From contig CAJINV010000004.1 in NCBI GenBank assembly GCA_905178155.1, positions 10,196,381 to 10,260,380 on the forward strand: a DNA stretch of 64,000 nucleotides, written 5' to 3'. Source of the stretch: Amoebophrya sp. A120 (lineage: Eukaryota; Protista; Dinoflagellata). Below the pieces are notes generated by a model. The model saw only the letters and a program-made list of their open reading frames with translations. It searched no databases and had not been told where the DNA came from. Positions 4,552 to 62,300 of the stretch are shown here, piece by piece (position 1 is the first letter of the stretch; every line of letters starts with the position of its first letter). A program made the translations under genes and the position numbers.

Positions 4552-4706
4552 TATGAATTGCAAAAGTATCGTACTCGCAGTAATTGCGTTTATGCATTAC
4601 AAATCTCTTTCTCAAGGTCAATCAGCATTACAAATTTAATTTGGAATGCTGGGCTAATTTGTAATGCAATTTATACTAGTACGATAGGATACTTTTGCAT
4701 TGCATA
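4552..4706. mobile_element. Introner-like TIR element, family B (155 bp); host gene unresolved
   Basis: TATGAATTGCAAAAGTATC...GATACTTTTGCATTGCATA; TSD CATGT at 4547-4551 and 4707-4711. Confidence 0.9.
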
Positions 4707-6381
4707 CATGTGCGGAGTAAACTCGAAGGCAGCTCCTCATCCGGCAGCGACGCGGCCCTCTACTTTAGCCTCTACTCAAGAGCCAAAAGTAATGTCAACA
4801 TTTACCGCCTCAAGCTCAACTACATGGAACTAAGTACAGCCGCATGGTACGATTAACAGTGCCGAGGATACGAGTTCTTGGTTTCATACAGGCTGATAGT
4901 ACTTCTTGACAGTACCTTCTACGCAACACATGTCATCTTGAAGTCGGTTTTTATGATAGACCAACACGGGACCTACATTCTTGCGACACATGATAATACC
5001 AGAGTCTGCATTCCTTTGGCTTTTGCTGATACAGGGCTGGGGCTGTGTATACGATTATACATGTTCTTGGTGTAGGTGAAACTTAGTCTATCATATAGTG
5101 TTCTTGTGATCAGCTGTGGTGCTGGGCGTCGGCAACCTGTGTCGGGAGAAGGAACATAACACATTGGCATCAACACATTAATGCCTGCTTTGAAAACATG
5201 CGGCAAATGGAAAATAAATCATATCCACGACCACATCAAGCATAAGCAAACGAATCCTTCGCTATCATCAGCGCATGACTCATGAGAAATCTTTGTGTGG
5301 AAGTGTGTTCATCCTGCATCGTTTTCCCTCCAGATTCCGTAGTTGTTGAACTATATTAAGCTGCTCGCAACATCTCGACGCAAGATCAAGAACAATACTA
5401 AAGGTAAAGGTTCTGATGTTCGCGGCTACATCGAAAGGGACGAGAGAAAGGAATGTCGGTGCGACATCGAAATATCTTTTTGTGCCAACTCTAAGTCTAG
5501 CAAGCTGCGACCTCGAAAGAAGGAAAGATAAAGAACAAAGTGTGCTGATCCATCGGTTCACGGCATGTTGAAGGTACTAACACGGTGCAGGCCAGCAACA
5601 TTCTTGGTGTGAAATAGATCATGGTCTGTGATTTCAAATGATAAATCACGCAAATAAAGATCAACGCATTCTAATTCTTGATGTGGGAGTCGGTCAACAT
5701 CAACTTCTCGACACATTTCTGATTGGAGATCTTGATTTCTGTATAAATGCGCCAACGCAACTGAAAAACGAGAGTCTCCTGCAGTGTCCAGTATTTCTGT
5801 ACGCATAAATCAGGCTGCATCTGCAATTGAGTTGATGTGCTTGCTCTAGTTTTTCAATCAATGTTTTTGCAGTATTGCAGAAAACTTCACAGGATTATTA
5901 AACCTCTGGACGTATTCCCCGCACTCTTTGTCTTTACATATTATAAGTATTGCTGCTCATATAGAGGTGGTCACAGAGCTTGCTACTCCCGCGCGGACCA
6001 TTCTAAGTCATTCATACACGTTGAGTTCAGAAGCTTTTTCTCTCTGGTCTGTTGGCACTTCGTCCACGGCCAAACTAGAAGCGAACGACTTTATAATACC
6101 AACGATTGGGAGGTGCATACGTATATTTTCTCTTTGGCGACATTGCTACATAACACACTGCATTCATATGCTTAAAAGTTTTACCTTCCCATCATCCCCA
6201 TTATTGCAACTTCTACTTTATCTACTTTAACTTCTTTCATTCTTTACCTCACCCGGTCTGTGAAACAGAAACTTATTCATTGACAATGCCCCGTCAGCAG
6301 AGTCAGAATTCCAAAGGATCGCCTTCGCCCGTTCTTTTTGTTGTGCCTCCGTTGCTCATCCCCGTTCCGCGCTTCGGCACG

Positions 6382-8702: not shown

Positions 8703-8990
8703 AGGGCCGCCCAGACCGGCGCACCGGCGAAGAGTCTTGATCTTCGATTCTTTTCCCATTCCCCGGAATGAAATAGAAATATTTGCAATAAAAATTGCGA
8801 AGGCCTGCTGGTGCGGCGTTTGCAGTTTTAAGTAGGCAATAATAATAAAAGTTTCAAAGGACTTGCAAGACAAAAAATATCACTAAGACTAAGTGGCTGC
8901 ATTGTCATGAAGTGCGTGCCGCATGGAAATATGATATCGGGACTGTAAAAAAGTTGAAATATGCATCTGCTTTTGTTTTCCTCTGGACAG

Positions 8991-9696: not shown

Positions 9697-9775
9697 TTTA
9701 CTGTTTTGGACCTTTTTACTGTTTTGGACCTATTTACTGTTTTGGAAAAAAAAAAAAAATTACTGTTTTGGACCG
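9697..9775. repeat. Short tandem repeat TTACTGTTTTGGA(CC), 4 copies, with poly-A interruption
   Basis: Direct reading of sequence. Confidence 0.8.
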
Positions 9776-10827: not shown

Positions 10828-12289
10828 ATGCATTCGAGGTCGTCGACGTCGATCCTTCGTCGGCTCGGGTCATTGTTGATTTGCCTATCATCCCAGGCAG
10901 GGTTTCTTTTTCATCTACTACCTTCTCCTGTACAAGCAGTGCTACCGCCGGGGTACGAGGATGAGCTCTATTGCCGTGCGGGATTCTGCATGGTATACAA
11001 GAACCTGGACCCGGGCTTCTGCGGTCCGTCGTCAGCCTTTCACGAGTGCTTCAACAAGGACACAGGATTATCGTTTGGGAAAAATCTATCGAACGTCGTG
11101 TGCACTTCCAATCTACGCACTTCCGCTTTTGCTTCACGACATGTTGTCATGAAAATCAATGCACCTTGTGGCCGTGGCCACCATCAGAAGTGCGGAACTT
11201 GCGCGCCCGGGCGTACCATCTTCAAATCAAAACCTCGATGCACAATGAATCTGTGAATTCTGGCTGCAGATCACTCGTCAATGATATCAATACATGCTAG
11301 AACAAGCATTTTTCAAATGCGACCATGAGCATGATGACACGCGGCTTCAATTTTGAAAATTGGAATCTGCATGCCATGTTTGTGCAGGCGCACGTACTTT
11401 TTCCATAGGATAAACAGAAAGGACTGGAGTAGTGGTTTGGGGGTCAAAATCACACGGAGAGGTAAGCAATAAACATTTAACTAAGTAGGCCAACGTGGGC
11501 GGCACGCATAGCTATTTCATATCTCAGGGGGCAGCGGCTGACGATGGTTATTTAGAGTGCAGTGGTCCCAGTCGATTCTATTTGCCATTAGGTGCTGCAA
11601 AAACTTCGCATTTGAGATGAAAATGTATGATGTGATTCTGATCTTCTATCAGGAGGAGAAGCAGAGGTTGTTGCAGAACGGTCACCACTATCCACTGCAA
11701 ATTTGTCTGGGTCAGGGAAAGTGCAGCTTGTCTTGCGTGTCTTGCAGCATGCATGTAGAACAATGTGTGTTGCATGTATGACCAGCAAAGCCGCACCCTC
11801 GTTTGTTGCACGAAAACGCAATTCGTCACGTGTGCTACAACACTTCAGAGAGCGTAGTTGCCAAAATTTGGCATGTTTGGCTGCAAATATATGGATGCGC
11901 AAGGTAGCATCACATGTCTCCACCCACAGACATATTTCTTCCTGCGGATAACCACACGGAAAATTGCTCCGACGACGTGGCAAACCAGTACCGCGCGTCG
12001 CTGCAGCAAAGGCCACCGGGCGTCCCACTATGCATTGCAAAAGTATCGTACTCGTATAAATGCACCATTACAAATTTCCTCAGCATGAGAAATAAAATTT
12101 GTGATGCAGATTTGCCTTAAGACAAAGATTTGTAATGCAAGACATGCATTTATACGAATGCGATACTTTTGCACGGCAGGATACCCACCGGCCGGCGGGA
12201 AGGGCGGCGAGCCGAGCATTCAGTATGTGGAAAGGGAAACGACTGCACAACGAGTGGATCAACAAGTTGTTCAAGATTTGGATCTGTAG
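10828..12289 (+). CDS. Small Cys-rich secreted hypothetical protein, 163 aa; exons 10828-11067, 11420-11461, 11653-11688, 11956-12028, 12189-12289
   Basis: Hydrophobic N-terminus. Continuous frame after removing one GT-AG intron (11462-11652), two clear TIR elements and one degenerate element; exon sum 492 nt. Confidence 0.75.
11068..11413. mobile_element. Degenerate introner-like element (first intron of 10828 gene)
   Basis: Imperfect TIR TTATCGTTTGGGAAAAA / TTTTTCCATAGGATAA; flanks ACAGGA / ACAGAA; removal restores frame (DTG-RTGVVVWG). Confidence 0.5.
11689..11950. mobile_element. Introner, diverged family A (262 bp)
   Basis: TATCCACTGCAAATTTGTCTGGG...CAGACATATTTCTTCCTGCGGATA; TSD ACCAC; frame restored (NGHH-TENC). 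Confidence 0.85.
12029..12183. mobile_element. Introner, family B (155 bp)
   Basis: TATGCATTGCAAAAGTATCG...CGATACTTTTGCACGGCAGGATA; TSD CCCAC; frame restored (GVP-PAGG). Confidence 0.92.
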
Positions 12290-13524
12290 AGATGCGTGAT
12301 GAAGCGTTTTGTGTGCTTTATCATAGGCTGGCTGTTGCTTGGGTTTGGTGTGATAAATTGAGTACTCAGCTCCACGTGTTTATTCGACGTGTGCATGTTG
12401 AACATGAATGTCGGTATGCACCGCACACTGAGACTTCTGTTGACACCAATAAATGTCATGCTCTTCCTTTTCATGATGCTGCAAATAGTATCATGACAGT
12501 AAGAACTTGAACCACGATACAGAGGCAAAGCCCTTTTATTGTTCCATACTCCGGTCGCAGTCGCTATGGGTGGCAAGGCGGTGTGAAGGCGGAAGTGAAA
12601 CACGACGACGACGCGTTCTGCAAAAATGGTGTTCTTGACCATGGCGACGTGACGGATAGCGTAAAAATGATTGTTCACAATTATAAGAATCGGTGGGTTC
12701 GACTGAATTCAAAATACCGATACACCATCACGACCACATCAGAACGTGAAAGAAGAGATGAAACGAGCATGGCCGTATGGCCGATGCTAATGGACGGCTT
12801 GACACGAGCGTGGCTCTTGTGTTCGACACTCAGTTGAGTGCTGCAGGACCCGTGCTTGCTTGATTCTGTTTTTGACCTGTGTGACCTGTGAGGTAGATGA
12901 TGGTGTGATTGGCAAATTGAAGCAAGGCTACAATTTATCGTAGCTTACAAGAAATGGCACAACAATGCCGTGGGTGTGTAGTTGGCGTTTCCTTAAGAAG
13001 ATTCTTGTCTGAAGAAATTTGTTTTGGGGTTCTTTCTGCAGTGTGCTGCTAAAGAAGAAATTGCCGAAATCTCGTGAAGGTGATGGACACGGCTTCTGAA
13101 GTACTATACGCATTGTTTCGTGATCGTCTGCAGAGCGGTTTCGTTGAAGAAAAAGATGATACGAAAAAGTCATTTAGTAGATCGCGATGTCGTGCTGGTC
13201 TTGGTGGGTCTTGATCCGCAAAACAGATCGCGACACGTGAAGATGAAAATCCTGAACCTGATCCAGTCCCAGTGTCTACCTGGTGGTCGATAGTAAATGC
13301 AACATAGACATAGACATAGTAGAGCAACTGTTTGCATTATTTGCACCATCTTGTCCTCCTGCCTTTGTTTGTAAAAGCGGTCGGCGCAAGTGCAGCAATT
13401 TTTAGACCCCTAGTATAATTCGCTGTAGTGTGTGGCTCCTGGTTCTTTTCAGTGTCGTGCGTCTGGTCTGTCCAGAGGACGATGACGCGCCGGCGCCGAA
13501 GTCATTTGCACAAAAGAACAGAGA

Positions 13525-16500
13525 ATGAGGGCCCTCCGAGCAGATATTAGCACTACTAGCAGCGGCCACTTCTTATCACACGATGGTAAAACTAAAAAGT
13601 CTAGCAGCGGGCGCCATGTTCTTGACACGCGGGTCTTCATTTCCGGTGCGAAACCTTGGACCAGCAGTCTCCCGCGGGGTGGTAGGCTTCTTTTGTCACT
13701 CACGACCGCCGGAGCGCTTTTCTTCTCAGACGAGGATGCGGAGAGCGGGTGTTATTTCGGAAGCGGTCAAGAATCAGAACCGCCTAAAACTAAAACACCT
13801 AGACGACGAGGAGCTGACATGGTGTTCCATTTCGCACATGCCGCAATTTTAACATCCTCGGCACGCGGCTCAGAAAAAGTGCACGACTACCCGAGTGGAG
13901 GTAATGGTGATAAAGGCGGAGATGATACAGCAACCGGCAGTGCAAGAACTAGAGCTGTTTTTTCCAGATCAACCCAGCAGGAGTCACCTCAGCAGGGTGC
14001 CGACGCAAGCGCCAAGTGCTGCTGGGAAGAAGCGCAAACAACTGCTGGGAGTGCGGCGACTGAAAAGATGAACCCGACGCAGTTGCTAAGCGAGGATCTT
14101 CGGGAGCACCATCACCAAGCGGATAAAATTGAAAATTCGCATGCCCGAGCAAATTGGTCAGAAAAAACCTACCCCAGGAGCTGTTTGAAAGAACACAAGA
14201 ATGCAGAACCAGCCGTTACTTCGTCCACCAGCAAGAACAGCACCTCCACCACGACCGCGTCCCGCACAACTCTGGCAGCTCTGAAAAAGGAAATAACTTT
14301 CGTGCGCATCGGAACGCAGGTCGAGATTCTGGGCAGCAACAATACTCTGCAGTTTCGCGAACTGCCGGACTACAGTCCTGCAGAAGACTCCGCTCCTCGG
14401 CGGGGCGTTGGGCGGCGGAACAAAAGAAGCGGTAACTCTAAGCGATCCTCGTCTTCTGGAGCGCGTAGTGGAACAACGACTCGCTGTGAGGAAACATCCA
14501 GTTCGTCTTCTTCTTCATCCTCAACTACGTCATCCTCGGAGGAGGACGAGGAGAGCAGCGACGAAACCAGCTCGGAGTCGGACGACGGTGATTATCAAAT
14601 GCAAAAATGTCTGGGTCTGGAAGGTTGCCAGGTTTGTCATGCATATTTTGCATGACCCATGATCATGATGCTTGTAAAGCATGGTCTAGCATCACAGACT
14701 TTTGGAGGGCATCCTGTTCCTGATGCCTATTCCGCATGAGAAATGCCCTTCCGGCGTAGCACAAAGTGAGTTCCTCTTCCTGGTCATGCAATACAAATGT
14801 TCCTAGGATCCGAAGATAGCATCACAAGTTGAAACCTTCCAGACGCAGGCGTTTTTGCACTTGATAGTGATAGCATCTCATCCAACTCGACGTCGAGCGA
14901 TCATTCTGAGTCGACGACCTCAGGCGGGCGTGATAATGTCCTACCGAAGAACTCGACTTGTATTTCTGCGCCCTCTGCAGCTGGTGCTGGAACAGGACCC
15001 GGATCAACATCCAGCTCTTGTACGTCTCCTAGAGATGCAGCGCAGCAGAATTTGTATTTGCCAGGGAACAAGGAGCATGTGCATGCAGCTCAAGGACGAG
15101 CACAGAGAACCTCCGTCGTGCAGAGTTCTTCTACACCTCTTGCGCAGCTGCAGGGGACTTTCACCACGGCGGAGGTAAAACCAGCTGAGGCAGAAGGGCG
15201 GGAACTACAAACCAGTCCAGTGTTCGATGACGCCGATCGCTCGGACCCACAGCCACACAGCAGCACTCGTGAGGATCTTCGTGCTGATCGACGTGGGTCC
15301 CACCGAAGTTCACGTGGCTCCACCGCCCTTCGCCCGTCTTCAGCATTGTTGGATCATAAGTCGCAAAAAGCAGGGAGCAGTAGCAAGACTTCCGGCAACT
15401 CGGGTCAGCGCTGCAACACACCGCATCCTGGAGGCCGGGTAGTTGACAGGAGTGGTAGGAAGATGAAAGACGATGCTGCAGCTAGTAGTAGTGGAGTGCC
15501 TGCCTCTGCTGAGAGCGTCGAGTTTCTGGTGCGCGATGCAGCTGGAAATGCACGACACCCATACGAAGGCTCGACACCTTTACAAAATGAAAATGCGTCG
15601 GCAACTTATGCTGGAACTGAATTCATGCTGCAGGGATCTTACGTGCCACAGGAACCGCTCCCGATCCCCATGCCCGGTGAGAAAGGTGTTGGTGCTAGTG
15701 CTGCTGGCATGATCTCAAATGAGGTCGGTTGCTCTGGCCTGATTGCTGACGTTCTCGTACGACCATCTCCGCCCAAAGCGCCGCCCCGCGGTAGGCCACC
15801 GCGCGCTAGAAGTCGGGAAAGAAGGAGGACGTTGCCAGTCACTAGCACAACCATGGGCGGACCTGCGGGAGAGGACGGGGTTCCTTACCATCCTCCGGGT
15901 ACCGACGAGAGGCAAATCGGCTCTACTACAGGAGAAGCTCCTAATATGACTTCTCAACCATTTCCGATGCCCGACGAGCTAGAGCCGCCCCCTACCAGAC
16001 CTTCATCAAAGACGCTGGTGGGCGAGGAGCGCTCGACCCTCATTCGCCAGGGCAGTCACAAAAATGACAAAAGCGGCATAACAACGCAGCCGCCTTTGGT
16101 ACTACCACAAATGGCCGGGAACAAATCGAAAAATAAAGCTGTGAAGAAAGGCACGAAACAAGATGAGCACCGCGCAACGACAGAGGCGCGCCAAAAACAA
16201 CCGAAATCAGGTGGGGCAGCCTCTTCAAAGCGTCGAGAGGGCCCGTTGCTAGCACCGGGAAGAAGTCGTCGCGATCACACTGCTCGCAATGATGACGATG
16301 ATGACGAGCTCCTGGAAAACTTACCCAGGTTTCCGTGGTTAAATAGCCTTTGTAGCACTACGCAAGAGGGCGTTCTTGCAGTGTCCCGTGGCGCTATGGG
16401 CAATCTCGAGCGGTTTGCGACCGCCGGCTTGGGTCGTCGCGTCCATGCAAGCGGTGCGTCTGTTCCGAGTTGGCTTTCATTTAGGCGCGGATTAGCTAGT

Positions 16501-19500
16501 GAGGACGCAAGTTCGACTACTTCTCTAGAAGGGCAAAGTCATCTACAACTTCGAGAACGGAGTTGTAGTTCCAAAGACCACGGCCTTCACTTGGACGGCC
16601 ACGGAGCTCCTGCCGCCCCCGATGCTGGCGAGGACATGGATGTGGATGATGATGAGCCCGTCGTGAATAACAAGTTCACGAAGGCTGCGATTGAACGAAA
16701 TTTCCAGCAGCGCCGAGGTGGAAAGAGCCATAGCAAGCCGGGCGGCCAGAAAAGCAAGAAGGCCCTGAAACGCGAAAGGCACAGAAGAGACAGCGAAGAC
16801 AGCACGACACAGGAACAACTACTTCATCACGCTGGAGGAGCTGCTGATGGGGGCCCAAGAGCGACCTCTCTTCGAGGTGGCGGAAAAATGTTGAAAGGCG
16901 CAAACAAGCGACCACCAAAGATGAAAACTACCTCTTTTCGCCGGAAGTTCAGCTACGTGGCCATAAGCCTTGCGTGTTCCACGGTCGCCGTGGCTCGCTT
17001 GATTCACTTCTTTTACGACCTGGGCAAAGCCACCGCGTTCGAAAGTCTGTACGACCTGGGTCAAGCTGTCGCGGACGGATCCATCTGGAGTCGGAAGTCG
17101 CTCTTCGAAACAACTGCGAGGACCGGGGCTGGTGGATCTTCAGACTCGGACAACTGGCGAAATCTCAAAAACGAGCTCTTTCCAACCTTCGATTGGACCG
17201 CGGCATTGAGCAAAGAGGAGAAAGCCGCTCTATCTGACGTGCTGGTCGTCTTCGCGAGCGCGTACCAGCCCAAAGTCAGAGACACTGCTACGGCCGGCGC
17301 TGCTCGTCGTGGGGGGTCTAGTAACCTCTACGCGCCGGATGATCATGACAAAACCGGAGAGGACCCGGAGGCGTGGAAGCTGATCAGTCATGCCTACGAG
17401 CGGGCACAGGGCCTGCGGGAGAAGAAGGTCGCACTGATCACGAACCGCAAGGAGTGGCCCGACGCGAAGGCGGCCCTGGCGGGGGCTGGGTACGCCCGGC
17501 TTGTCGCGCGAAACCTGGTGGACGGAATGGTGGTCGCTGACATGTCGGCGCACGCCGCGTACCTAGGTCCGAAGACGATGGAACTCAGGCAGAAGGACAC
17601 GTTTATAGTACACGACGAGCCCGAAGGTAGAAGTGCTGGTGGTCAGATGCAAACTATCTCCAAACAAGCTGCAAAAATGTTGCTCGAGAACAGCAAGATG
17701 ATGAGAAGCGCTTCGGTAGATGAGAAAGAACAGGTTTGCATGAGCTCTATCGCACCGGCGCTATCTTCGGGCACCCCGCCGAACGAACAAGCAGGAGCGA
17801 TTACCGCAGCATCTTCATGTAGTTCATCAGCATCATCGTCTAGCTCCGCAAGCAGCGGCCATCGAAGTGCCGATACCGTTTCCCGCGAAGATGTTTCAAA
17901 ATCTGCCGGTGCGACGTCAGCAGCCCTGGAAGTAGGGCCAGAGGACAAGAAAGAAATTCTGCAGGTTGCGATGGACATCGCGAACCTTTTCGAAGGGGTT
18001 GTGGACAAAATGCAGCGCTTGTCGCTGAATAGTGGAGTAGCACGTGGTGGACCAAGTAGCAAAAGCGAGGAACAACAGGGACGACCCGGGGTGTTGAAAA
18101 GCGAATCTCAATCTTCAAAGAACCAAGGCGACGAGAAGAACAAGCCCGTTCTGGACGTTTACGTGGACGAAAACGGAAACGAAATCACTCCCAACGCGAT
18201 ACTTGCCAAGTCGAAAATTACTGACACTACTACAGACGAAATAAATCTCATCCGTCCCTTCACGAGGACTTCTCAGCCGAGCGACGAGAAACAAGAAGCT
18301 CAAGAACAGCATAGTCAACAAAGTAGAAGCCGCAAGGACACGGACTACGGCTGGATTCTGCATCCGCAGACCTACAACGCAGAAACTGGCCAGGCGAAGT
18401 GGCATTTCATTGACGTGGCCGCGGATGTGTCCTGGCACCCGCACCACGGAGACCAGCTGAAGAACTGGCGGGAACAGGGACCGGACATCGGGAATGTGAT
18501 GCCTGGCGCGTCGCACGGGTTGCTGGCGAACAGAAAGCATGGGCTTATTGGTCCGGAGGAGTTCCATGTGGTGGTTTTTGACCGCATCCGGGAAGTTTTT
18601 CTCGCGGTGAAAGAGGCAAACCAACTGCAGATCTCCAACCAGATCGCGGACTCCCTCGTCGCCATGGTGGACTTCGAGTTTCTGGGCATCCAGGCGAGAG
18701 ACGGGAAGGCAAGTACAAGTGGTGCGGGTCCACCTCGTGGGGAGCCTCTGCAGCAGCGACCGTCGTTGCAAGAGGTACTAGCTCTTGTGTAAAGAAGTAG
18801 ATGCAGTACAGCTGGTTTTACGCAAGTTTATGTCTGATGTTCCATGTTACTTTCTGTTTCATCTACATCTTCTGCACGCTGGCTGCAAACTCTTTTATAA
18901 GAAGATCTTCAGCTCCCCCTTTCTCAGGACGAGGACGAGGTCGTGCACATAGTAGCTTAACAACATCTACATCATCTTCCCAATCGATAAAAACAGCTTG
19001 CTACAGAGACCGAGCGCATTCTGGCAGCCACCCCCGCCGACCGCTCGGACCCGGTCCACCGGAAGCGCGAGTCGCAAATCGACCTCCTGACCGAAACGTA
19101 CCTGCGAAAGCTCCGTCAGCACTGCCCTATGAACTGCAAAAGTATTGTACTCGTAGTAATTGCAGTCATGCAAGACAAATTTCATTTCCAAGCTAAATCA
19201 CCATGACATATTCCGTTTGTCATGCTGAGCTAGTTTGTGTTGCAATACTACGAGTACGATACTTTTGCAATGCATATGCCCACGAAAGCTACAACTCTCT
19301 CATTTCCAGCGAGCGGCCCGGGCCCCGAGCGTGGACGATTTGTTGCGAATCATCACGGAATCGTGCTACGAAGCGAAAAGCGTTTACAGCAAGAATGTGG
19401 AGAAGAAAAGGCAGAAAAAGCAAAAAGAAAAGGAAAAAAACCTGCCTTTAATCGACTACCGGGCGAGTGAAGACAGTGAATTTCTCGAGATCGAGCAGGA

Positions 19501-47000: not shown

Positions 47001-50000
47001 GCGCTGCAGTGCCAGCGCCGACTTACCAAGCATCCATGAGAGGCGCCGCGGTTGCTAGGGTTTTACGCTAAAAGTGGCAACGCTGTCCATGTTTTGCCTT
47101 CGTCTTCCTTTTTGGGTGTCTTTCCGCTGCTTTTTTGCCGTACTTCGTTCATTTTGTTGCGTTTTTGCGCCTTTTCGAGCTACGCGGAGCTTTTCCGGCG
47201 CATTTTGGGCCTAAAAACGAACAAACTGCCTGGGGCTGGTTATTTTCGCCGCCTGCTTGCCGTATCTTGTTCACTTCGTCGCGTTTTTGTGCCTTTTTAA
47301 GCTGGAGGAAGTTTTTTTGGCGCATTTTGGTCCTCAGAACGGCCAAACTATCTGGAATCGACCTGGCGGATGCGATAGCGCCACCGCTCTGCGGACTTGC
47401 TCCTGCAAAATCATCGGCGCGCGCCTTGTCTCGCTTCTGCGCCTTTTTGGAGAATTTGCAAAGTGTTGCACTTTTTCGCCTATTTCGATGGCTTTGCGAC
47501 CGTTTTTGCTTTGGTTTGCGTCTGTTGGTGCATTTGCGCACCTTTTTGAGCTGATGGGAGCTCTTTTGGCGCATTTTGGTCCTAAGTACGACCAAACTGT
47601 CGGGAGTTAGCTCTACGTGTGCGACAGCGCCAACGCGCTGCGAACCGCTGCAAAATCATAGGCGCGCGCCTTGTTGCGATTTTGCGCATTTTTGGAGAAT
47701 GCGCAAAGTGGCGCACTTTTGTGCTTATTTTGAGAAATTTGCGCCCTTTCCGCCTTAGTTTTTGCATTTTGGCGCATTTGCGCAATTTTTAGGCTTAACT
47801 AGGTGGCCCCGCCGTGCGCTTTTCCGTCCATTTCGTTCTTTTTGACTTAACAAGGCCTGTTCTGCAGTGAAATGAGCCGAATTAGCACCAAAAAGGTGCG
47901 TTTGTACCTTAAGAAAATTGGCATTTTTTTTCGAATTTCGCAGCTCTTTGCGAATGTGCCCTTATGCGCACTTACGTCGTTACTTTCATCAGTTCGCGAC
48001 TTTTTTCCTTTTTTTGTCGCATTTTCGCACATGGGGGCAGTTTTAGCGCTTAACTAAGTGGCCCCGCCGTGCGCTTTTCCGTCGTTTTTGTTGTTTTTGA
48101 CTTAACAAGACCAGTTTTGCACTAAAATGACTCGAATTAGCACGAACGACGTGCGTTTTTACCTTAACAAAATTGGAATTTTTTTTTCTGATGTGATGCA
48201 TGTTTGCAATACAAGTTAAAGACGAGTGCGATACTTTTGCACAGGATACGGATGCTCCGGACTGTCGCTGCGAGCTTCCGCGTCGCCACGATGTTGCTTG
48301 CGATGTCGGCTGCTACGCACATCAGGATCTATGCTTGCTACGCGGCGCGGTATTACGAGATACCGTTCCTAAGCGGTTCCCAAAACGTGATGCGTGGGCA
48401 GCAGGATCTGCTGAGCATGTCGGGTGCGGAAATTCAAGAAGTCTGGGACAAAAACCCCGTGGAAATGTTTTTCCCCGGCATGGGCTTTTCCGACATGGGG
48501 GAGTGGGTTATGGCTTCGCTTTTCAATTTCGAAAACACTGGTGAAAGTGAACAGCACGGATCTTCTTCGGCTGCACAGCAACAAGTTCCTAGTAGCAGCA
48601 GCCGCGCTTGGATGCAAAACGAGGTGGAGCAGTGGTACCAACGGATTCCCATTATGCTGGATGAGAAGGGCATAGCGGATGAAAACAGCAACAACCTGCG
48701 CCTGAACAAACCGGGTAGTACCATCACGGAGATGGTTGCGAGGGAACTGCAGAAGGACAAAGGCAGCAGAAAAGCTGCACACGGAGAAAAGCACGATCCA
48801 AGCCGAGGCGGGAACAACCCGGTCGTGTACCATCTGATCAGCCCGGACGATGCGGCGATGGATGCGAATAAATATGGAGGATTCGTGAAAAAGTTTGAAG
48901 ACCGCTTAGCCGGGCCAAATTCAGTCCGGAGCTTGCCGAAGATGCGGAAATTGCTTTCTGCGGACGAGTTGCTGAACCGGTTTGCAAACATGGCTGGAAA
49001 AAGTAGAACAACCGGAGTTTTCGGAAGTGCAGCTAGCAGTACTCTCTACAAACCGGTAGCTGCCGTGCACGAGGGAATCAAGACAGTGTTAACAGGCTTT
49101 CACAACTACTGGACACATGCCATGGACACCGTGACGCCAGGCGGGTTAGGACTTGAGCAACAAGGACGAGAAAGCGGAAGTGCATCTGCAGCATCTGCCG
49201 TGCAAAGCCAGAGTGGTCAACAGCGAGGAAAGAAATGCAAAAAAAAATCAGCTGCAGCTTCACCTTCACTTTATCAAAGAAATGGGAAGCAGGAGGATCA
49301 TTACACCGGGAGTGGTGCAGCAGCTACTTACAGTTCTGCCCAGCAATCATCCACTTCCAAGCTCGAACTAACCCTCGACACCCCCAACACCGAAGAGATC
49401 ATGCTGCAGCGCGCCGAGTTCTATCTCCGCAAGTGGAGTTACGCGTACGCCTGGAAGCCGCAGGTGGATTTATTACTCGAAAAATCGAAGCGTTTCGATG
49501 GCGACACCGCTGCCAGACGTGCGGGCGAGTGGGGACTGCTTTCCCGCTACTGGGCGGAGCGGGACGCTTTACTTGGGGAAATGCGGCACCAGGTCGAGGC
49601 GACGAGCACGCGGAGCGTGTTTGGCATCAGCTTAAGAATGCTGCACTACTTTACGGACGCGACAGTGAACGTCGAGCGACGGGCGATCATGCGGCTGGAC
49701 CACTTGCAAGACGATGAGGGTTTCGGTCGTGTGAAAGTGAGGAAAGCTGCAGGGGAAGTTGTAGGTGGTGCCGGAATATGCACTGCAAAAGCATCGTACT
49801 AGTATATATAAATGGCATGACAAATTCCCTCAGTATGTTATGAGAAATGAAATTTGTAATGCGGATTTAACTTGACAGAAAAATTTGTTTGTAATGCAAA
49901 AATGCGATTAGTACGAGTACGATACTTTTGCAGTGCATACGGAACTACAAATCCTCAGCCTCCTGCTGACGCAGGTGACGAGGGAGAGATATGTGACGAC

Positions 50001-53000
50001 GATGAAGATATTAATGCTGAATTTCAAGCTGAAGGGCCGATAGAAGTAGACGCGAACGGTGCAGAAGCAGCCCGACGACTACCACAACAGGAAATTCGGT
50101 ACGACGGATCATCTACATCTTCTGTGGAGAGTGGCGACGCCAGCGTTTTGGATGGTAGTGGTGCAGGTACAGCCCGTTCGGGAAGTCACAACTCTTTCAT
50201 GGCCGGAGCTCACTTGAGCCCTCTGCAGGAACTTTCGTCGACGTTCACTTCCACTTCAGAACTTTTTCATCCTGATGCGGAGGGACCGCAGCTGCCACAC
50301 AAGAACCCTGTTGTAAGTGCACCAGTTGGGGCGCCCCATGCGGAGGATCATGGGAGCGAAGATCTCCCTGAGATTGATGATGAATCTCCGGATCATATAA
50401 AACCCGACTTTGTCGAAGACCCGAACAGGCTGATGAATCACGACAGCTACCTGACATTCGTCCAAATCACGGCAATCCAGTCCGACAAGCATCAAACACA
50501 CGGTGCAGCAGCTTCGTCCGGTAAAGCAGATCATGGCGATGGCAAAAAACAGAAACAGAGAACTGCCGGCGGACAGTCTAGTACGCTCTACCCGTGGGCC
50601 GGTTTTGTCGATTGCAAAAACGCATTGGAAACTGCAAAGGAGTTGGTCGTTGATCACGGCTACGACACGGTCCTGATTTCCAAAGTTCGGACAAACACGC
50701 CATTGCTGGAGGTGAGTAAGAGTCAAAACTACGAGGAGAACGGGGGGCATTTGATTTGGAAGCAAGCTGTTGCGCTGAATGGCGCGCAGGCCGCCGCGGG
50801 AACAGCAGCTTCTGACTCTTCCACGCCTTTCCATTCAAAAAAAGAATCCGTTGTCGATGACCTGACCGCTCTTCTCCGTCACTTATCACCCGCCGAAGTT
50901 CTCGCCGCCGAATGGGACGAAAATCTCCGGAAGCATCTGGTCACGAAATTTGATTTGCTTGAGCCGCACCTCCGGAAGGCGATCCACGAGGAAGCGGAAA
51001 AGGACGAGAGGGTGAGGCAAGGCGCGTTGCATCCAGCGGGCATTTTGAGACAGCAAGGCGATGTTGGTGGAGCTGCAGCTGGAGGGGGCACCAGCGGAGT
51101 TGTAGAACTACGTGAACCAACTTTTTTATCTCAAGCGGCGATGCGTGACTACGAGAAGGGATTCGCTTCGGGGGTGACGATGGTTCGCACGGAGCAATTT
51201 GCGCAATTCGCGAGGGAGGAGCAGTTTCGCCTGAGGCCGAGTTCGGATCACCATCATGCGGCGCAGCGTGCTGACAAAATTACTTCACCGGCTCCTCACG
51301 AAGTAAATCCTTTTGCCGGATTTCGTGATGTTTTGTCGGCGGGACCGATTAGACCAGAGAAGCCGATCCCAGGATCTTCATCCACACCGCGTGCAGCCGC
51401 TCCAAGCAGCCTGTACTCCTCTTCCCGCACCAGTAGTTCCTCTCCACCAGCATCTCCAGCGCCGAAACTGAGAGTGATCGTCGAAAAGTTTCAGGCGAAC
51501 ACGAAAAACAGCAGACTAGCCCTCGCCTGGAGCAAGTACGTCTTTGAGAGGACCCAGGCGCTCGCCGCGGAATTTTTGCAAGACAAAATCGAGGCCCCGG
51601 TGTTGGCGGAGTTACACGCGCTCGCAGCGGTTGGGGAAAGAATCGGAAATGAAGAAAACGCTTTTCTTCCGGAAGATGTTCTTGGGAGAAAGACTTCCAA
51701 GAAAGTAGACCCCGCCCACTTCACCGGCGTCCAAGGACTTCCGAAGGTGCTGGAATCGGAGCTGTGGCCAGATGCGTTCTTCGGATCACCTGGGTATGAA
51801 GAGAAGAAGAAGAAAAGCCTACCGCGGATCAAAGAGTCCGAGGCGTATAGGCTGTTACACAACGCGGTAGAAAACAACAAGAACTCCATGGAGGACAAGT
51901 ATAGTGCGAATGGAAAAATAGACGAAAAAACAACATCTACGAGAAGTACTAGCGACGTGGAGACAATTTTGTCCGTCGTGAAGGAGGAAGCAGTGGCCGC
52001 GAGGGATTTGTTACAAACGCCAATTTTGATCCTGACTGAAGACGAAACTTTATCCGTTCTCGTGCAATTAAACGTCGAGGCGGTGGAGTGGCAGAAACGG
52101 TGGAAGCGAAGGCAGAATAGCAAAAGACACAAGCAAGTGCAAGAAAAAAGCGCTAATAAAGATCCTGCTTCATCTACCTTTGCCCACCCGACTTACAGCG
52201 GTCCCGCTGAGCTTCGTGATGCATCTGCGATTGCGGCACCGTTTGTGTCCGAAGATGACGAAGACTTCCGCGGGTCGTTTCTGCGCATTCTCTCCGCGAC
52301 TCACAAAGAGAAAGATTTTACCGCCGATCCGCTTCAAACTGCGATAGAGCCAAGGAGTAGCACGTGCAGCAAAGCCGAAGGGGCGCAGCTGCACAAGACG
52401 GCGTCGTCTTCGTCTGACACGAGTACAACTCGGGGGAAAAATCAAGATCACAGCAAGCAACAGCAAGAGCAGGGTCTAGATCAGTGGCGCCCCCTCTGGC
52501 CAGAGTTCGCAAAGGATTTACCCTTTACGCCCTTACCAGGGGTTCCACCTCTTCCAGTCGGAGGCGGCGTCATTGACGGCCGTGCGACTTCTTCTGCTTC
52601 GTCGACCACTGGCAACACAAAAACTGCTCCGTACATCTTTACCTGGCCAGAGACATACAACAACCCAGGAATACTCGTGGAAGGCGGCTTTTTCGCGGAA
52701 ACGGCCGGTGCAGAAGCAGCTGGTGCAGCTTCCCAGGTCAAGCACAAAAAGACGCCTCTCAAAACGGCCTACGATCAACGACGCTATGCGCAGGATACTT
52801 ACGATAAGATGATGAATCCAGACGAAGTAGAGGGGACTACTACAGCAGCCTCAAATGGCGACGAACAAAAGTCTACTACTGCTTCATCAGCTCGTGATGA
52901 AATGAGCAGGGAAGAGCGCAAGATAGAACCCTGGCGCCAGGTCCCGAAACCCCTGCGCCAGCCGGTCACCCCCCGTGTTTTGATCCAATGTAAACAACAG

Positions 53001-56000
53001 ATCCCGGACTGGTGCATCGGGTCCAAAACCGACCTCCTGCCGACCAGCCAGACCTATCAAATGTAAAAATGTCTGGGTCTGGAAGAATGCAACTTGTCAT
53101 GCTGCGTCTGCATTATCCAAAAATCTGTATTGCATGAACAGCAAAAGAGGTCTGGTTTTGGCCCCGGCGAGAGGGCATTTCTCATGCGGTAAAGGCATCA
53201 GAAAGCCCTCACAAGATCTGTGATGCTAGGGCATGCATCGCAGGCATCAGGAGTCATGCAAAATGTGCATGACAAACCTTGCATCCTTCCAGACCCAGAC
53301 ATTTTTGCATTTGATAAGACCTTCCGCTTAGCGATTGAAGCCCGCTGCATCTCCACGAGCGGGGAGCACGTGGCCAACCAGTGCGACCGGTGGGCGAGGT
53401 ATGGAGAGAAAAAAGTTTGTCACAGTCACTAACTTGCAGGCTTTCCATTACAAATTTTCTCAGCATCACACACTTTCCTTGTATTGCAGAAACACTAGGG
53501 AAATCCCTAATGAAGTTTGGCTGTGATGCATTTTTACGCATGACAAACAATTTTGTATTGCAAAAATGCGCATGAGTGATCGTGACGAACTTTTTTCCTT
53601 TGATACGAGGATGGGTGCGGATGGGGCGCTGCTGTCCTTGGATGACTTGCTGAACGAGATGATCGACAAAACCAACGCGGTGGGCGCGAAGTTCAACCCG
53701 ATCGACGGCGACCCGCAGGACAAAACCGTTTGCCGCAAGTTTCGCCCGACGGAGGATGCGGCGGAACAAGAAGTACAACCAGAGGGAACAAACACAAAGA
53801 ACAAGCACGTTGGGCGGATGAAAAACATGATCTTGCTAGTGGAGTCCTTGTTCAAGGGAGCCAACAAACCCTGGAAGCACACGCCGCCCAGCGCGAGTGA
53901 GGCAGAGAGGGAACGAAACCAAATTGTGCAGGAAAAGGCCCTAATGGAGATTTTGTTGGACGAACTGCTGTTGCCAAAGATCTTTGTTCTGGAAGAACAG
54001 TCTTCAAGTACATCAACTACCGGTGGCGCGACTGCAACCGGAGCTGCAAGTCACACAGACCTGCACCAAATGTTGAAGATGAGAAACTACAAAAAGGAGC
54101 GTGCACAGTGGATCCGCATGTTTCGGCTTTTTCGCAAAGAACTGGTCTGGCCGTTGTTCGCGGCGGCACTGCGGTTCAAAGATTTGTGCATCGACCGGCG
54201 GGTTTTTCGGGTCGTGTTGGTGGAGGTGTTGGAACGGGTTTTGCGGATATTGCCGGAAGACGAGAAAACGCAGGCGGAGGAACAAGATGGTGGAAGAATG
54301 AACATTGAAGAAGTTGAACCTGCTTCGCCCAGCCTAGTTTTGTCGCGGCTGCAGAGTAGAGATGAAGCGCGTGCAGATGCTGCTGTGGTCCATCAGGATG
54401 AGTATGAAGAGACTCAAGTTTCGGCTTCGCATGATACTCCTGGCCCGTTGTCGGACGATGCAGATTATCATGCAGATTCGCTAGTTAAAAACTTCCGCCG
54501 CCTCTCCCTGGTCGGACACGGGCCAGAGACAATTACCACCGCAGCGGATCCAGAGGAGCAAAATCAGCAAACGTCTGCGCACTTCTTGGACACATTTCCA
54601 GGGCGACCCTCGGGAAGTAGAGGTACAGGTACGACTTCTTCCCAGCACAGAAAACTACATTCGGACGTGCACGAAGACTGGTCACTTGGTGAACAACATC
54701 CAGACGCGCCGCGTGGAGCTACTACTACAATGAACCGCGCCGAAGAGCATACCGCAAAGCTGGCTTTTGACAATCTGCATAAGCTTTTCACCGCAGATAC
54801 TGTCCAAGACATTCTCGCCTCTTCCTTCTTCAACGCCGCTAGCGCGCCTCCGCAGCGCGCGCCGGTGGCTCCGGTTGTTGTATGCATTGCAAATATGTCT
54901 GGGTCTGGAAGATGAAGAATGCAAACTTGTGATGCGCGTTTCACAACACATAAAAGTTTTTCATGCGTAGGCAGCAAAAGCTGCCTACTTTCTGTCACCT
55001 CCAAAGTGGGGCGTTTGTCATGCGGATTCGGCATTGCGGAAGCTTCTCGAAACCTGTGATGCTAGAGATTCCATGCCAGACCTTCTGCGTCATGCAAAAG
55101 CAGCATGACTCTTCCAGACCCAGACATATTTGCCTTATGATATGTCGGCGCCGGGCACGACAACTCGGTAAAAGCCGCCGCAGCGATTTCGAGTGATTTG
55201 ATGCAGAAACTGGTGGACGCTTTACCTCCCTCCGCGGTGACAGAAACCAGGAACAAGCTGGCGATAGAGGAACAGACTGCGGGGGGTCACACAATGAACA
55301 AAGAGAAGACAAGTGGTTCAACATCTACTTCCGCCAGGAGTAGCAGAGCTTCTAGTTCTTCCGAGATGTTGACCCACCCATCCGGGAGCGCGATCCCGGG
55401 TGCAGCTTCTCCTCCCGACGGGTACGAGCGCGTCGCGGATTTGGCGAATGTCAAAGATGAGGAACTGAAAACTGCGGTCAATAGTTGGATCCGGATGGAG
55501 GAGACTGTGGATAAGAAAAAGAGCATTCTGGAGGGGGATTTCTCCGTGAACGACAACGATCCGAACTTTCTTGTTGGTGAAAATAAACAGGACAGCAGTG
55601 CAGCTCATCTAAGCCACGTCCTGCTCCCCGAGTACGTGACGAGCGATCGTTCTATGGAAGCGTCAGGTTTGAAATCGTCAAAGTTGCAAATAATTTGCAA
55701 TGCATAAAATGCATGGCCCGAGGCACGTGTGTTGCAGAGCAGGCAAGTGAGGCAGATTGTTAGCCTGTTTGGGGTTACAGCTCGAGCTGCTAAAGTAACA
55801 TGAGAAAATCGCTCTTCTTTGCCTAAACAGCATGACAAAGTGGATTTAGGGACCACCGAAATTTGTCTTGCGCCATTTAGAAACTGGGTTCCAACTGGCA
55901 TCCATTTTATGCATGACAAATCATTTCAACTTTGTCGATTTCAACCCTGATGCTTCCATACGTTCCGCCCCGCAGTTACAGCTCGACTTCGCAGTGAAGG

Positions 56001-59000
56001 AAAAAGATCGGAAAACGGTATCAAATGTAAAAATGTCTGAGTCTGGAAGGTTACCATGTTTGTCATGCATATATTACATGACTCAGGATGTCTGTAATGC
56101 ATGATCTGGCATCACATATTTTTAGAGGCCTTCCTGATGCCTATCCCGCATGACAAATGTACTCCCAGCGTGGCACAAACTGGGCTCCTATTGCTGGTCA
56201 TGCAATACATATTTTTTTAGAGTTGAAAGTTAGCATCACAAGTTCCAACCTTCCAGACCCAGACATTTTTACATTTGATAAACGGGCGAGGCAGTCAAGG
56301 GGAAAAAAGCAGCTGCTGGGCGGGAAGTTCGGATCTTCATTAACAGCCGGAGCACGGCCCGGGCCGCGTATGCGTTTCACAAGGGTGTGACGAAGAAAGT
56401 TGGGAGGGAGGAGAAAGAGAAATTCAATGCTGTGGTGAATGCGGTGCTTTTCTCTCCATCAGCTGCATCTGCTGGTACGACGGGGACCACTTCTCCAGAG
56501 GACAAAGTTGCGGCTAACTCGCCCCCATCATCAAGCTCGCAAGAACATCAAGAGCTCGCTTCGATCCGCAACACACTGACAAAGTGGCACAACAAAAGGC
56601 ACACGAAATACCAAAAAGAAAGGGAGAAACTTGAGGACAAGTTCGAAAACAAGCCCATCGATTTCGGCGAACGGGTGGAGGAGTTGAGTGCGAGGCTGAT
56701 AGCCGGTGCCATCGTTTTCTCGTTGGAAACGGCTGGCCGCGCACCGGCATATGGTAAAGTGTGGATGGATGCTTTTCGCGGCTTGTCAAGGGTGTATTGC
56801 AGCAAGAAGGACTGGGCGTTTTTCAACAAGATAAAAGGCCTCGGCGCTTCTCAACAGGACAATTCTGGTTCTGCTTCCTCGGCAGAAGCTAGTGCACAGA
56901 GAACAAGTGCTGGTGCCAGCACACCGAACAGCGAGGCGCTGCAAAGACTTTCCGAGGAAGAGATTCACAAGGAGGCCGCGCACAACCTCGAGCAGGTTGA
57001 CGCGGCGCTTTCCCTCGCGCAGGTGATCGCGACGCACGCGGATCCGCGGGAGGTCGCGCACGATACGTTTTCCTCCATACTGCACATCTCCGCACCGGTG
57101 ATTGCCGCGGAACAGATGAAGATGATGAAAATAAGCGGTGCTGGAACTTCTACCAAAGAACGGAAAAATGGACAAGAAGGCACGACTTCGGGGACTAGTA
57201 CTTCGTTCTCAGACTCTTGCTCCGGGTCCTCATCCTCGGCAGCCTGCAATAAAGTCTCTTGGAACGAGTGGTGGTGGAGCAAGGTTTTCGGAGATAGAAA
57301 TGGAGGTGAAACCACTACTACTGCCCCCGCCCCACCTCCACCTGATGCACCACAGAGTCCACCGCAATCCCTAGCCGATTTCAACCTGAGATCGGTTCTC
57401 AACGCGTATTACATCCAGGCGGATGCCGCTTGGTTTGCCGCAATTGTGGAGAAAAATTGGGATCTCAAATTGAACACGATGGAAACAAGGAAACTCGTGT
57501 TGTTATGGCAACGCCAGAGCAGCGAGTTCCTGCACCAGCCGATTTACTCGGAGTACGATTCGGTGAGAAAGCAGAGGAGAATCGATTTCTTGTGGGATTT
57601 TCAGGAAGCGTTGGGGTTGGTGGTCAGACACATGGTACACACGAGAAAACAAGTTCCTGATTCATCTGTTGGGGATGATGCTCCTAAGAAGTCGGACGCA
57701 CCAGGACCAGATGGCGCTGCATCAGGTACTACTACTTCCATCGCGGGTACTGGTAGCGCTTCCTCCACCTCGTCGATCAGAGATGAAAATAGCAAAGATC
57801 AACGTCGGCGCTCTAGTACATCTTCAGGTGGGACGGCGAGCGAGGACGCGAAGTCCTCACAATCATCTTCCAAGATGAAACCTCCCGGAGGAGCTGCAGA
57901 GATGAAAAACAAGGGTAGTTCCAAGTCTTTTTTGTCCGAGAAGCTTTCTGAAATTGAGAAGGAAGTCGTCAAGTCCTGGACGGTCGGAAACGAGTGGTGG
58001 ACCGCGGTGATTGTCGCATCACGCGTGGTGGAGTACACAACCGCCTTCTTGGCGGTCGCAAGAGCGAACCCGGAGGATTTTGGCGCGAACGAAGCGGTAT
58101 GGATTGCAAAAATGTCTGGGTCTGGAAGATTGCCAGACTTGTCATGCAGGTTTTCCATAACCCAAGAGGTCTGGTATGTAGGACATAGCATGACAGATTC
58201 TGCGAAACCTTTCCAATGCCTATCCTGCATGAGAAACTGCCTCTCGATTAGGTCAAAAGTGCACAACCTTTGGCAATCATGCAACACAGTTTTTTGCCTG
58301 ATTCAGATTTAGCATGACAAGTTGCATTCTTCCAGACCCAGACATTTTTACATTTGATAAGCGGGGGCGGCTTTGTTGGAAGGACCTTTTGCGCAGTTGG
58401 CGGTGGATATGACAGTACACAACTTCCCCTCCCCCTCATTTGTCATGCAAAATCTCAAATCCAGTCGCTGCCTTGTGGCACTGTTTCCATGACAAGTTCT
58501 GGTAGCCCAAATAGCACTACACTCCAGTGTTAATTTGTCATGCAAAACCCACATTCTTCCTGATGTTTGTGTTGCCATTCATGCTATACAAATGAGAGAG
58601 GGGGAGGGGGAGTTGTGCAATCTCATAGTGGACACAGGCATCATTTTCCGGGATCTGCTGGGGGATCCGAGGTGCCCGGTTGCGGGGGGTGGGGATGACA
58701 GGTACGTCTATTTTTTTCGTAGTAGCGGCGCCCCGGATGTTTTCTTCTGTAGAAGTAGACCCCACAACCAGAACCACTGAATAAAGTGTGACGACGAGGA
58801 GGTCCATGATGCTTCTACGCTAGAAGTAGTAGATTAATTTGGATATGGATTTGACCATAAATGAGTCCAATCTCTTGCACTTCCACTTGCTTGCTTCCTC
58901 GCAGGTCCCAGACCGGTACAACGACTAGCAAGCCCCGCAAAAATACTCGAGTCCAGTTTTCCCAGTCCTGTCTCACGTCCCATCTGTCAACCGCCCTGCT

Positions 59001-62292: not shown

Positions 62293-62300
62293 GGATGGAC

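Follow-up and report, generated by a model that had tools for sequence, protein, structure and literature searches.

Transposon-like elements in an Amoebophrya sp. A120 locus are missing from transcript-type contigs together with five flanking bases, and are probably cut at a fixed register

Introduction

The 64,000-nt stretch of Amoebophrya sp. A120 DNA analysed here (the window) carries elements that start with TAT, end with ATA and lie between short direct repeats inside coding sequence. How are such elements removed without GT-AG ends, and between which bases does the cut fall? A first-pass annotation had placed them in a class already published for Amoebophrya. This was right, as TAT starts and 5-bp repeats are both given by Farhat et al. 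(2021), cited throughout from excerpts (PMC7789003). The window is therefore an instance of the class and not its discovery. In those excerpts the exon/intron border is described as unknown, and the splice sites are said to shift in position with respect to the hairpin. No paper fixing the border or the removal mechanism was found in the openly available literature. Here mismatched repeats put the border, probably a fixed one, at N|TAT...ATA-NNNN|.

Census and anatomy of the elements

The window was scanned for TAT...ATA pairs of 60–800 nt with an exact flanking 5-bp repeat, yielding 28 pairs, 23 of them with a terminal inverted repeat (TIR) score of at least 25. Each of 20 dinucleotide shuffles yielded 1–7 TAT...ATA pairs, none with a TIR and 0 at that score. 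Twenty-four of the 28 pairs are elements (11689 at a score of 23.5), and four are chance pairs (score at most 13.5). A further exact-repeat element (45275–48248) crosses an N gap, four elements (21553, 36711, 44968 and 54881) have one repeat mismatch, and a degenerate one (42319–43044) has two. The window thus holds 30 TIR-bearing TAT...ATA elements, with 25 exact 5-bp repeats, four with one mismatch and one with two (Table 1). The 29 elements annotated earlier were recovered (presumably the same set), and the degenerate element is a thirtieth. The 5-bp repeat that had been claimed for every element is exact in 25 and inexact in 4 of the 29. 'About 8' TIR families had been estimated, close to the five multi-copy families and about five singletons found here.

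TAT was present at 60/60 element ends, and A occupied positions 11–14 in 41–51 of the 60. End-to-end pairing was predicted in 26 of 27 folded elements. The traits of MITEs, or non-autonomous TIR transposons, are present: TIRs, a target-site duplication of constant length, no coding capacity, many copies and both orientations. The GT/GC...AG ends of U2-type introns are not a feature of the elements. When the junctions of all 30 were tabulated in six registers, GT-AG occurred solely at 53400 and AT-AC solely at 4552, reproducing the earlier result. GT-AG splicing of the 42319 element through an AG near its end is disfavoured: the only in-frame AG (43003) lies 41 nt inside, and it might still be used. 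In other copies of this element the match runs a few bases beyond ATA.

Outside the window, 309 unique full-length copies were collected from 153 loci, and window elements matched outside copies at up to 97.6%. Summed contig depth in X1 was far higher for elements than for exons. Among 209 outside copies with TAT/ATA ends, the 5-mer repeat was exact in 170 and one base off in 28; exact repeats of other lengths numbered 19 (2 nt), then 6 and 2, with 0 for 6–10 nt. The same families occur on contigs that encode a protein identical to the A120 Rab GTPase P0005. No ortholog of the window locus was present among the outside loci. GT-AG was possible in 1/30 window elements and in 17/303 oriented copies, and at register 4 (the cut that leaves the first four bases of the upstream repeat in the transcript) in 10/303.

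Only two outside copies exceeded 600 nt, the longest ORF being 137 aa. No transposase was found in elements of the window or the outside loci (ORFs of long copies, Pfam). Pfam gave no match in 9 ORFs inside two long elements or in 6 ORFs of the insert in 45275–48248. The single mobilising enzyme proposed earlier finds no support here: no transposase was seen, and Gozashti et al. (2025) report diverse origins of A120 introners (PMC12130899, excerpt).

Table 1. Elements, host reading frames and canonical intron, in window coordinates.
Feature	Position	Strand	Direct repeat(s)	Remarks
Element, ~155-nt family	4552..4706	.	CATGT	No host gene assigned
Element, ~262-nt family (divergent)	11689..11950	+	ACCAC	Short host frame; no bridging piece among matches listed
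Element, ~155-nt family	12029..12183	+	CCCAC	No bridging piece among matches listed
Host frame, 1675 codons minus 1 element	13486..18789	+		No Pfam match
Element, ~262-nt family	14593..14866	+	GTGAT	Inferred intron 14592-14870; X3 contig joins 14587 to 14867 = 274+5 nt
Canonical GT-AG intron, same transcript as elements	18775..18996	+		Contig arithmetic; present in DNA run X1
Host frame, 2070 codons minus 12 elements	18991..28164	+		ORF after deletion, contig joints
Element, ~155-nt family	19128..19276	+	TGCCC	128-nt contig gap = element+5 plus GT-AG intron
Element, ~155-nt family	21553..21726	+	GTGTC/GTGTT	Mismatch position 5; downstream base kept (inferred, piece ends)
Element, ~262-nt family	21776..22042	+	AACGA	Exact fit of 43-nt gap shared with 21553
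Element, singleton in window	22993..23208	+	GTTCG	234-nt gap (X3, X6) fits jointly with 23447
Element, ~262-nt family, opposite orientation to 14593	23447..23711	+	TGCTA	Contig gap shared with 22993
Element, ~155-nt family	24584..24737	+	CCGTG	180-nt gap across four elements fits exactly
Element, 235-278-nt family	24775..25052	+	GAGCA	Contig gap
Element, ~310-nt family	25080..25399	+	CGGTC	Contig gap
Element, ~310-nt family, opposite orientation to 25080	25530..25835	+	TGGGA	Contig gap
Element, ~220-nt family	26734..26952	+	CCTCC	61-nt gap in X6 fits jointly with 27019
Element, singleton in window with numerous relatives in outside loci	27019..27312	+	GATGC	Gap shared with 26734
Element, ~262-nt family	27633..27894	+	TTTCA	Perfect complementarity between the arms over their first 30 nt
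Host frame, 2674 codons minus 3 elements	30291..38995	+		ORF after deletion, contig joint
Element, degenerate TIR	32401..32669	+	CACCA	Frame restoration
Element, 235-278-nt family	34408..34642	+	CACCG	Frame restoration
Element, ~155-nt family	36711..36874	+	TTCAT/TTTAT	Mismatch position 3; upstream base in transcript
Host frame, 3920 codons minus 11 elements	41060..58777	+		No junction bridged by RNA contigs
Element, GC-rich, 726 nt, degenerate TIR	42319..43044	+	CTTCG/TTTGG	Right boundary uncertain; restores 3920-codon frame
Element, ~262-nt family	44968..45225	+	GCTAC/GTTAC	No bridging contig
Element, ~155-nt family, nested 2-2.8 kb insert over N gap	45275..48248	+	CGGAT	
Element, ~155-nt family	49777..49939	+	CGGAA	No bridging contig
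Element, ~262-nt family	53055..53316	+	AGACC	No bridging contig
Element	53400..53605	+	CGAGG	GT-AG only in register keeping 4 upstream bases (53399-53609)
Element, ~262-nt family	54881..55142	+	TGTTG/TGTCG	No bridging contig
Element, ~310-nt family	55653..55960	+	CGTTC	No bridging contig
Element, ~262-nt family	56019..56280	+	AACGG	No bridging contig
Element, ~262-nt family	58098..58359	+	AGCGG	Frame restoration
Element, ~220-nt family	58408..58627	+	GTGGA	Frame restoration

Reading frames and removal from transcripts

Deletion of element plus 5 nt restored frames of 1675–3920 codons, and retention placed a stop in the best frame for 30/30 elements. Rejoined frames had been claimed for 28; restoration is strong for 27/30, within four long ORFs, and weak at 11689 and 12029 (a 150-codon frame). 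A canonical GT-AG intron lies alongside the elements, as had been annotated. Pfam searches of 19 ORFs returned a CRAL/TRIO domain in 117–3962 and one sub-threshold match. Rfam and a viral contig scan each gave 0 matches. Searches with two window exons returned no homologues within length limits that probably exclude full proteins.

Contigs of X3–X6, whose RNA label is a guess, were treated as presumed transcripts because they are without the GT-AG intron that X1 holds. Among the matches listed, X1 (DNA) contigs contain the elements with 0 differences, and X3 contigs are without both the elements and that intron. Exactly element+5 nt was absent from transcript-type contigs at 13 of the 25 elements compared, in both element orientations, in agreement with the earlier proposal that the elements act as introns of this length. 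At 36711, for example, an X6 contig joins 36708 to 36878, a skip of 169 (164+5). Another X6 piece ends at 27627, to the left of element 27633, its far side not being among the matches listed. Raw RNA reads with the same species label (X9) gave 31 partial reads at element ends and none on exons. The gene at 41060–58777 has almost no contig cover, so that transcripts are silent on the mismatched repeats of elements 42319, 44968 and 54881.

A hairpin flanked by a direct repeat is a classic setting for template-switch artefacts. The gaps could accordingly be reverse-transcriptase template switches, or excision at the DNA level, rather than splicing, and the guessed label of X3–X6 leaves room for this. 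We consider it very unlikely: a retained element brings a stop in all 30 frames, the Rab GTPase gene needs four removals to equal P0005, and the GT-AG intron is missing from X3 along with the elements that X1 holds unchanged.

Position of the cut

Where the two repeat copies differ, the transcript reveals which copy's base is kept. At 36711 the upstream base is kept at repeat position 3, and at 21553 the downstream base 5 (indirectly, from piece ends). In a Rab GTPase gene of another assembly (element L043:1743–1896), Ala is encoded only if base 4 comes from the upstream copy; homologues have Ala at this site in 82/89 and Asp in 0/89. The spliced gene agrees with P0005 at 230/230 residues with upstream base 4, and otherwise at 229. 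Four such removals are required for a protein identical to P0005, which is conserved in orthologues. At L050:219–481, upstream base 5 gives a stop (loose frame call). A copy at L017 no longer carries its TAT end and now reads GT-AG; the proteins matching it are unspliced predictions or a paralogue.

The three informative sites have a single register in common, N|TAT...ATA-NNNN, in which the upstream copy supplies four repeat bases. If one register applies throughout, the sites at hand (three firm and one weak; two from the window, two from the other assembly) make the intron likely to be N-U-A-U-[GC]...AUA-NNNN. The cut might instead vary within the repeat by copy or molecule, the agreement at register 4 being a coincidence of few sites. 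Informative sites number 3–4, L017 gave no information, and variable sites are what Farhat et al. report (PMC7789003, excerpt). Yet every informative site intersects at a single register, the net removal is always exactly 5, and the most frequent A120 motifs in the excerpted Table S4 (NT-NN 9/9; A25, TT-NN 9/9) all fit register 4, which makes a variable cut improbable. The Table S4 motifs may reflect aligners biased to GT-like ends.

Strand-specific signals

Among the 303 oriented copies, none had a substitution at the first T of the transcript 5' end (303/303 intact); the last A at the 3' end was intact in 292 and substituted 11 times (binomial p=0.001; p=0.012 with one doubtful orientation reversed). 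With 10–11 events at one of 30 positions examined, this asymmetry is borderline after correction. The remaining 29 arm positions showed no 5'/3' difference. Six to seven of the 3' substitutions are A to G, which would preserve a U.G pair. In 4 non-wobble cases a change on the 3' side disrupts the terminal pair, and no change on the 5' side does so. Within the intron the invariant T occupies +2, where GT donors have theirs.

Candidate signals in the repeat were rejected, with no preference for G at +1 (95/303) or for a terminal AG (24/303). Enrichment of G at +5, suggestive in the window alone, was absent from the 303 copies, and no branch-point signal was identified. Strand-specific selection on the hairpin RNA was likewise rejected: G.U and A.C arm pairs (227 vs 200, p=0.21) gave no transcribed-strand bias, and sense and antisense strands folded equally. 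The sole strand-specific signal is sequence-like, the T at +2.

Removal mechanism

The best explanation overall, in which we place about even confidence, is excision at a fixed register by a probably modified U2/U6 spliceosome; the spliceosomal nature of the catalysis itself is also put at an even chance. The cut would fall one base before TAT and four after ATA. The spliceosome would require U at intron +2 and no longer +1 G or a terminal AG; the 5' end of the element would imitate donor positions +2 to +4, and the 3' site would depend on how far it lies from the paired arms and not on AG. Because the 1+4 flanking bases would equal the 5 duplicated, an insertion in any orientation or phase would be erased from mRNA. 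The elements are very probably non-autonomous TIR transposons with the 5-bp repeat as target-site duplication, the work, probably, of a DDE transposase of integrase-like type whose gene lies elsewhere. More tentatively, and at somewhat less than even confidence, the spliceosome may need only U (and A) at +2/+3, ignore the first G and last AG and count four bases on from the inverted repeat to its 3' cut, so that every 5-bp-duplicating TAT...ATA transposon, whatever its orientation or phase, would be born a seamless intron.

The same elements and register could be served by a hairpin-guided pathway of their own, resembling the one in Euglena: two cuts, offset at 1 and 4 bases outside the stem, would be followed by exon ligation and release of a circular or linear intron. 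Such a pathway would suit the end-to-end folding of 26/27 elements, their removal in both orientations and their ends without G or AG preference. The spacers of 1 and 4 share their stagger with the Euglena N3 and N5–6, where circles are reported (PMC12501133); the 3' spacer is here 3 bases the longer, and this similarity tells against the spliceosomal reading. So does the predicted pairing of bases +2 to +4, which would need unwinding. That U1 snRNA went undetected by Farhat et al. also suits the hairpin pathway. On the side of the spliceosome, A120 has U2, U4, U5, U6 and the U1 proteins, with snRNP27 undetected (PMC7789003); in yeasts, loss of SNRNP27K accompanies +4 U donors (PMC10581693), and in Fritillaria a spliceosome is reported to process transposon introns without GT-AG. 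Against the hairpin pathway stand the absence of a G.U-over-A.C strand bias and of a sense/antisense fold difference, a terminal pair broken only from the 3' side, T at +2 in the commonest motifs of both strains (PMC7789003, excerpt), and the lack of a known enzyme. The absence of strand-specific selection on pairing, together with T at +2, therefore slightly favours the modified spliceosome. The separate structure-guided excision proposed in the first-pass annotation is weakened by these results and is a live rival, to which we give roughly one chance in three.

A fixed border with an invariant +2 U makes exact predictions for lariat or circle ends, for a mutation-sensitive base and for redrawn A120 gene models. 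If the spliceosomal reading is true, the terminal G and AG would be dispensable genome-wide, and the flooding of coding exons by transposons without cost to the protein would be explained.

Comparison with known systems

Euglena nonconventional introns (PMC12501133, PMC11282704) are alike in their TIR-paired ends, direct repeats at the junction, fixed spacers with a longer 3' one and GT-AG introns alongside. Their rule, N3-CDG...CH'G-N5–6|R, differs from N1-TAT...ATA-N4 (PMC12501133); no preference for a purine after the junction is evident here, and the pairing that matters genetically in Euglena has no strand-specific counterpart here. Introns of Fritillaria borealis (PMC11282704, PMC13326754) are likewise derived from TIR/TSD transposons and have non-canonical ends, with an altered U2 spliceosome reported. 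They retain a conserved U1 and end for the most part in AG-AC or AG-AT, whereas here 3 of 4 terminal bases come from a random target repeat.

Among DDE transposons, IS481EU, IS3EU/GingerRoot and Ginger2/TDD have termini TNT..AYA or TA..TA with short TIRs, and TDD-4/5 have a 5-bp TSD. In the excerpts available (PMC10045372, PMC2836005) no single group combines TAT..ATA with 5 bp: the TSD is mostly 4 or about 15 in IS481EU and 6 in IS3EU/GingerRoot, and Ginger2 has TGT ends. For A120, Gozashti et al. (2025) describe massive intron gain, tens per gene, by families of TIR DNA transposons, one TIR-flanked family having integrase-like ORFs reminiscent of Ginger (PMC12130899, excerpt). These families were compared by description rather than matched one by one, and no ORF-bearing copy occurs here.

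The elements are very probably Amoebophrya A120 introner elements. In the excerpts of Farhat et al. (PMC7789003), these have an inverted repeat that starts with TAT, followed by about seven variable bases and an A run, direct repeats of 3–5 nt (5 bp in the Fig. S19 legend), no GT-AG, a mean length of about 240 nt, no internal transposase and canonical introns alongside. The window elements are the same in kind, sharing the TAT start, A run, repeats, non-GT-AG removal and families. The published repeats vary in length and position, whereas those found here have a uniform length of 5, with the border probably at N|TAT...ATA-NNNN|.

Results

TAT and ATA pairs 60-800 nt apart with an exact flanking 5-mer numbered 28 in the window. 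Clear terminal inverted repeats (TIRs) were present in 23/28, and 20/20 shuffles contained zero such pairs, so the elements are not chance products. Twenty-four of the 28 are elements and four are chance pairs; one long copy and four copies with one-base repeat differences complete the 29 elements counted in the first-pass annotation. The 5-bp repeats that it placed around all of them held as a general rule, but those four copies have one mismatch, and a degenerate 30th element was added. There were five multi-copy families (about 155, 220, 235-278, 262 and 310 nt) and about five singletons, with family copies mostly 65-90% alike and present in both orientations. Positions 4-10 at both ends carried variable blocks recurring in unrelated families; inner arm positions were family-specific.

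Features in the window, with one copy from another locus (L017)
Feature	Coordinates	Remark
Elements with one repeat mismatch	21553, 36711, 44968, 54881	named by start
Degenerate 30th element	42319-43044	
Long element copy	45275-48248	
T-rich insert, 2-2.8 kb	45400-48200	internal repeats; nested in ~155-nt element
Tiny-exon sites	21727-21775, 24738-25079, 45226-45274, 58360-58407	also in loci
Element-free ORF	117-3965	1282 codons; CRAL/TRIO domain at N-terminus
Canonical GT-AG intron	11462-11652	directly upstream of 11689 and 12029; backed by loose end of contig from run X6
GT-AG intron	18775-18996	
Direct repeat, ~65 bp	61570-61635, 62820-62890	copies ~1250 bp apart
Strong inverted repeat with short tandem units	62171-62400	surrounded by the direct repeat; not a TAT element
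Apparent 53400-family copy	L017:1929-2136 (minus strand)	TAT end lost; now readable as an ordinary GT-AG intron

The nested insert gave no Pfam match and nothing similar in the loci; its N gap may be an assembly overlap, since its 136-nt flanks are identical at 135/136. Tiny exons between neighbouring elements were in excess (8/23 gaps ≤80 nt versus 2.4 expected, p=0.00035), and short gaps in the loci peaked at 30-70 nt, with none <21 nt. The excess fits linker-biased or local insertion, reported for algal introners (PMC9860276).

A pattern scan yielded 160 stretches (153 loci), every one of them in a single assembly, with 309 full-length unique copies of the window families, up to 97.6% alike. 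TAT and ATA were both intact in 209 of the loci copies; of these, 170 had an exact 5-mer and 28 a 5-mer with one mismatch; other repeat lengths were near background. The class is already known, as had been recognised: in the consulted sections of Farhat et al. 2021 (PMC7789003), the introner elements of A120 number 29,850 copies and have TAT-initial inverted repeats followed by an A run, with direct repeats of 3-5 nt. Strains AT5 and Kv are described as mostly canonical (PMC12005148, in part).

Deletion of an element plus one repeat copy (element+5) gave frames of 1675, 2070, 2674 and 3920 codons, together containing 27 elements, for which the annotated rejoining of the frame stood; 11689 and 12029 fell in a short frame, and no clear host frame was found for 4552. 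Retention introduced a stop codon in 30/30 elements. A Rab GTPase gene in the loci contained four elements, and its spliced product matched A120 protein P0005 at 230/230 residues.

The proposed loss of exactly element+5 from transcripts was borne out for 13 of the 25 elements compared with public runs, which contigs bridged among the matches listed; the remaining 12 had no bridging contig among those matches. Elements 14593 and 36711 each had one single joint of exactly element+5; for 11 others, contig gaps of 128, 43, 234, 180, 234 and 61 nt matched the predicted lengths to the nucleotide, in some cases with 2-4 elements taken together. The second GT-AG intron in the table was missing from X3 and present in the DNA-type run X1. 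Transcript support was counted as one line of evidence because X3-X6, whose RNA label is a guess, belong to one study and X1 is possibly the source of the window sequence.

The exon/intron border, called unknown in the text seen of Farhat et al. (PMC7789003), was located via elements whose repeat copies mismatch. Upstream base 3 was kept in the transcript of 36711 and, judging from the end of a left-aligned piece, downstream base 5 in that of 21553. In a Rab gene element, Ala arises only with upstream base 4; it occurs in 82/89 homologues and the alternative Asp in 0/89. At locus L050, where the frame call is loose, a stop arises if base 5 is upstream. Given a fixed register, the intron is N-TAT...ATA-NNNN, and the transcript takes its first four repeat bases from the upstream copy and the fifth from the downstream copy. 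GT-AG arises at 53400 in no other register. Table S4 of PMC7789003 implies the same register, its nine commonest A120 motifs all having T second, a pattern that aligner bias could cause. The L017 copy, taken as a fifth register site, was uninformative without its TAT end; it may show how an element can turn into a canonical intron.

Oriented copies (n=303) comprised 276 of 377 unique loci copies, assigned by reading frame and codon use, and 27 window copies; two were oriented by hand, and 101 loci copies were excluded as unoriented, with repeat match <4/5 or (four) with unclear ends. At the transcript 5' end the first T was intact in 303/303, whereas the last A at the 3' end was substituted in 11/303 (by G in 7, C in 3 and T in 1; p=0.001, rising to 0.012 with a doubtful L006 copy reversed). 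None of the remaining 29 arm positions differed between ends, and with 30 tests corrected for, the asymmetry is borderline. In the inferred register the first T falls at intron +2, where spliceosomal donors have their most conserved base.

Discussion

The elements would have spread as non-autonomous TIR transposons with 5-bp target duplication. No empty site was found among the loci and no transposase in the copies and ORFs examined. Integrase-like DDE groups have termini and repeat lengths resembling those of the window elements (PMC10045372, PMC2836005, both in part). In the sections consulted, Gozashti 2025 reports a TIR-flanked, integrase-like A120 family, yet diverse introner origins (PMC12130899), and the single mobilising enzyme first suggested is not established.

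For removal we favour a modified U2/U6 spliceosome, with about an even chance of being right. A simple spliceosomal picture is disfavoured: the oriented copies showed no preference for G at +1 or for a terminal AG and no +5 G bias, and the +2 to +4 bases lie inside a predicted stem in 26/27 elements. A Euglena-like pathway, akin to the structure-guided excision proposed earlier, is the less probable candidate, though a serious one; genetically defined Euglena spacers have the same 3'-longer stagger (PMC12501133, in part). Removal guided by the hairpin alone is disfavoured by the balance of G.U and A.C pairs across strands (227 versus 200) and by sense folding no better than antisense (153/300), in a test whose power is limited by inherited mismatches. 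Neither the rule for the border nor the asymmetry at +2 U was found stated in the literature searched, where unviewed figures or datasets may say more; together they make the question of removal testable.

The modified U2/U6 spliceosome would act in a strain for which the available account lists U2, U4, U5, U6 and U1 proteins as kept, and U1 snRNA and snRNP27 as undetected (PMC7789003). SNRNP27K loss accompanies +4 U donors in yeasts (PMC10581693, in part), and the excerpts seen for Fritillaria provide a precedent for a modified spliceosome (PMC11282704; PMC13326754).
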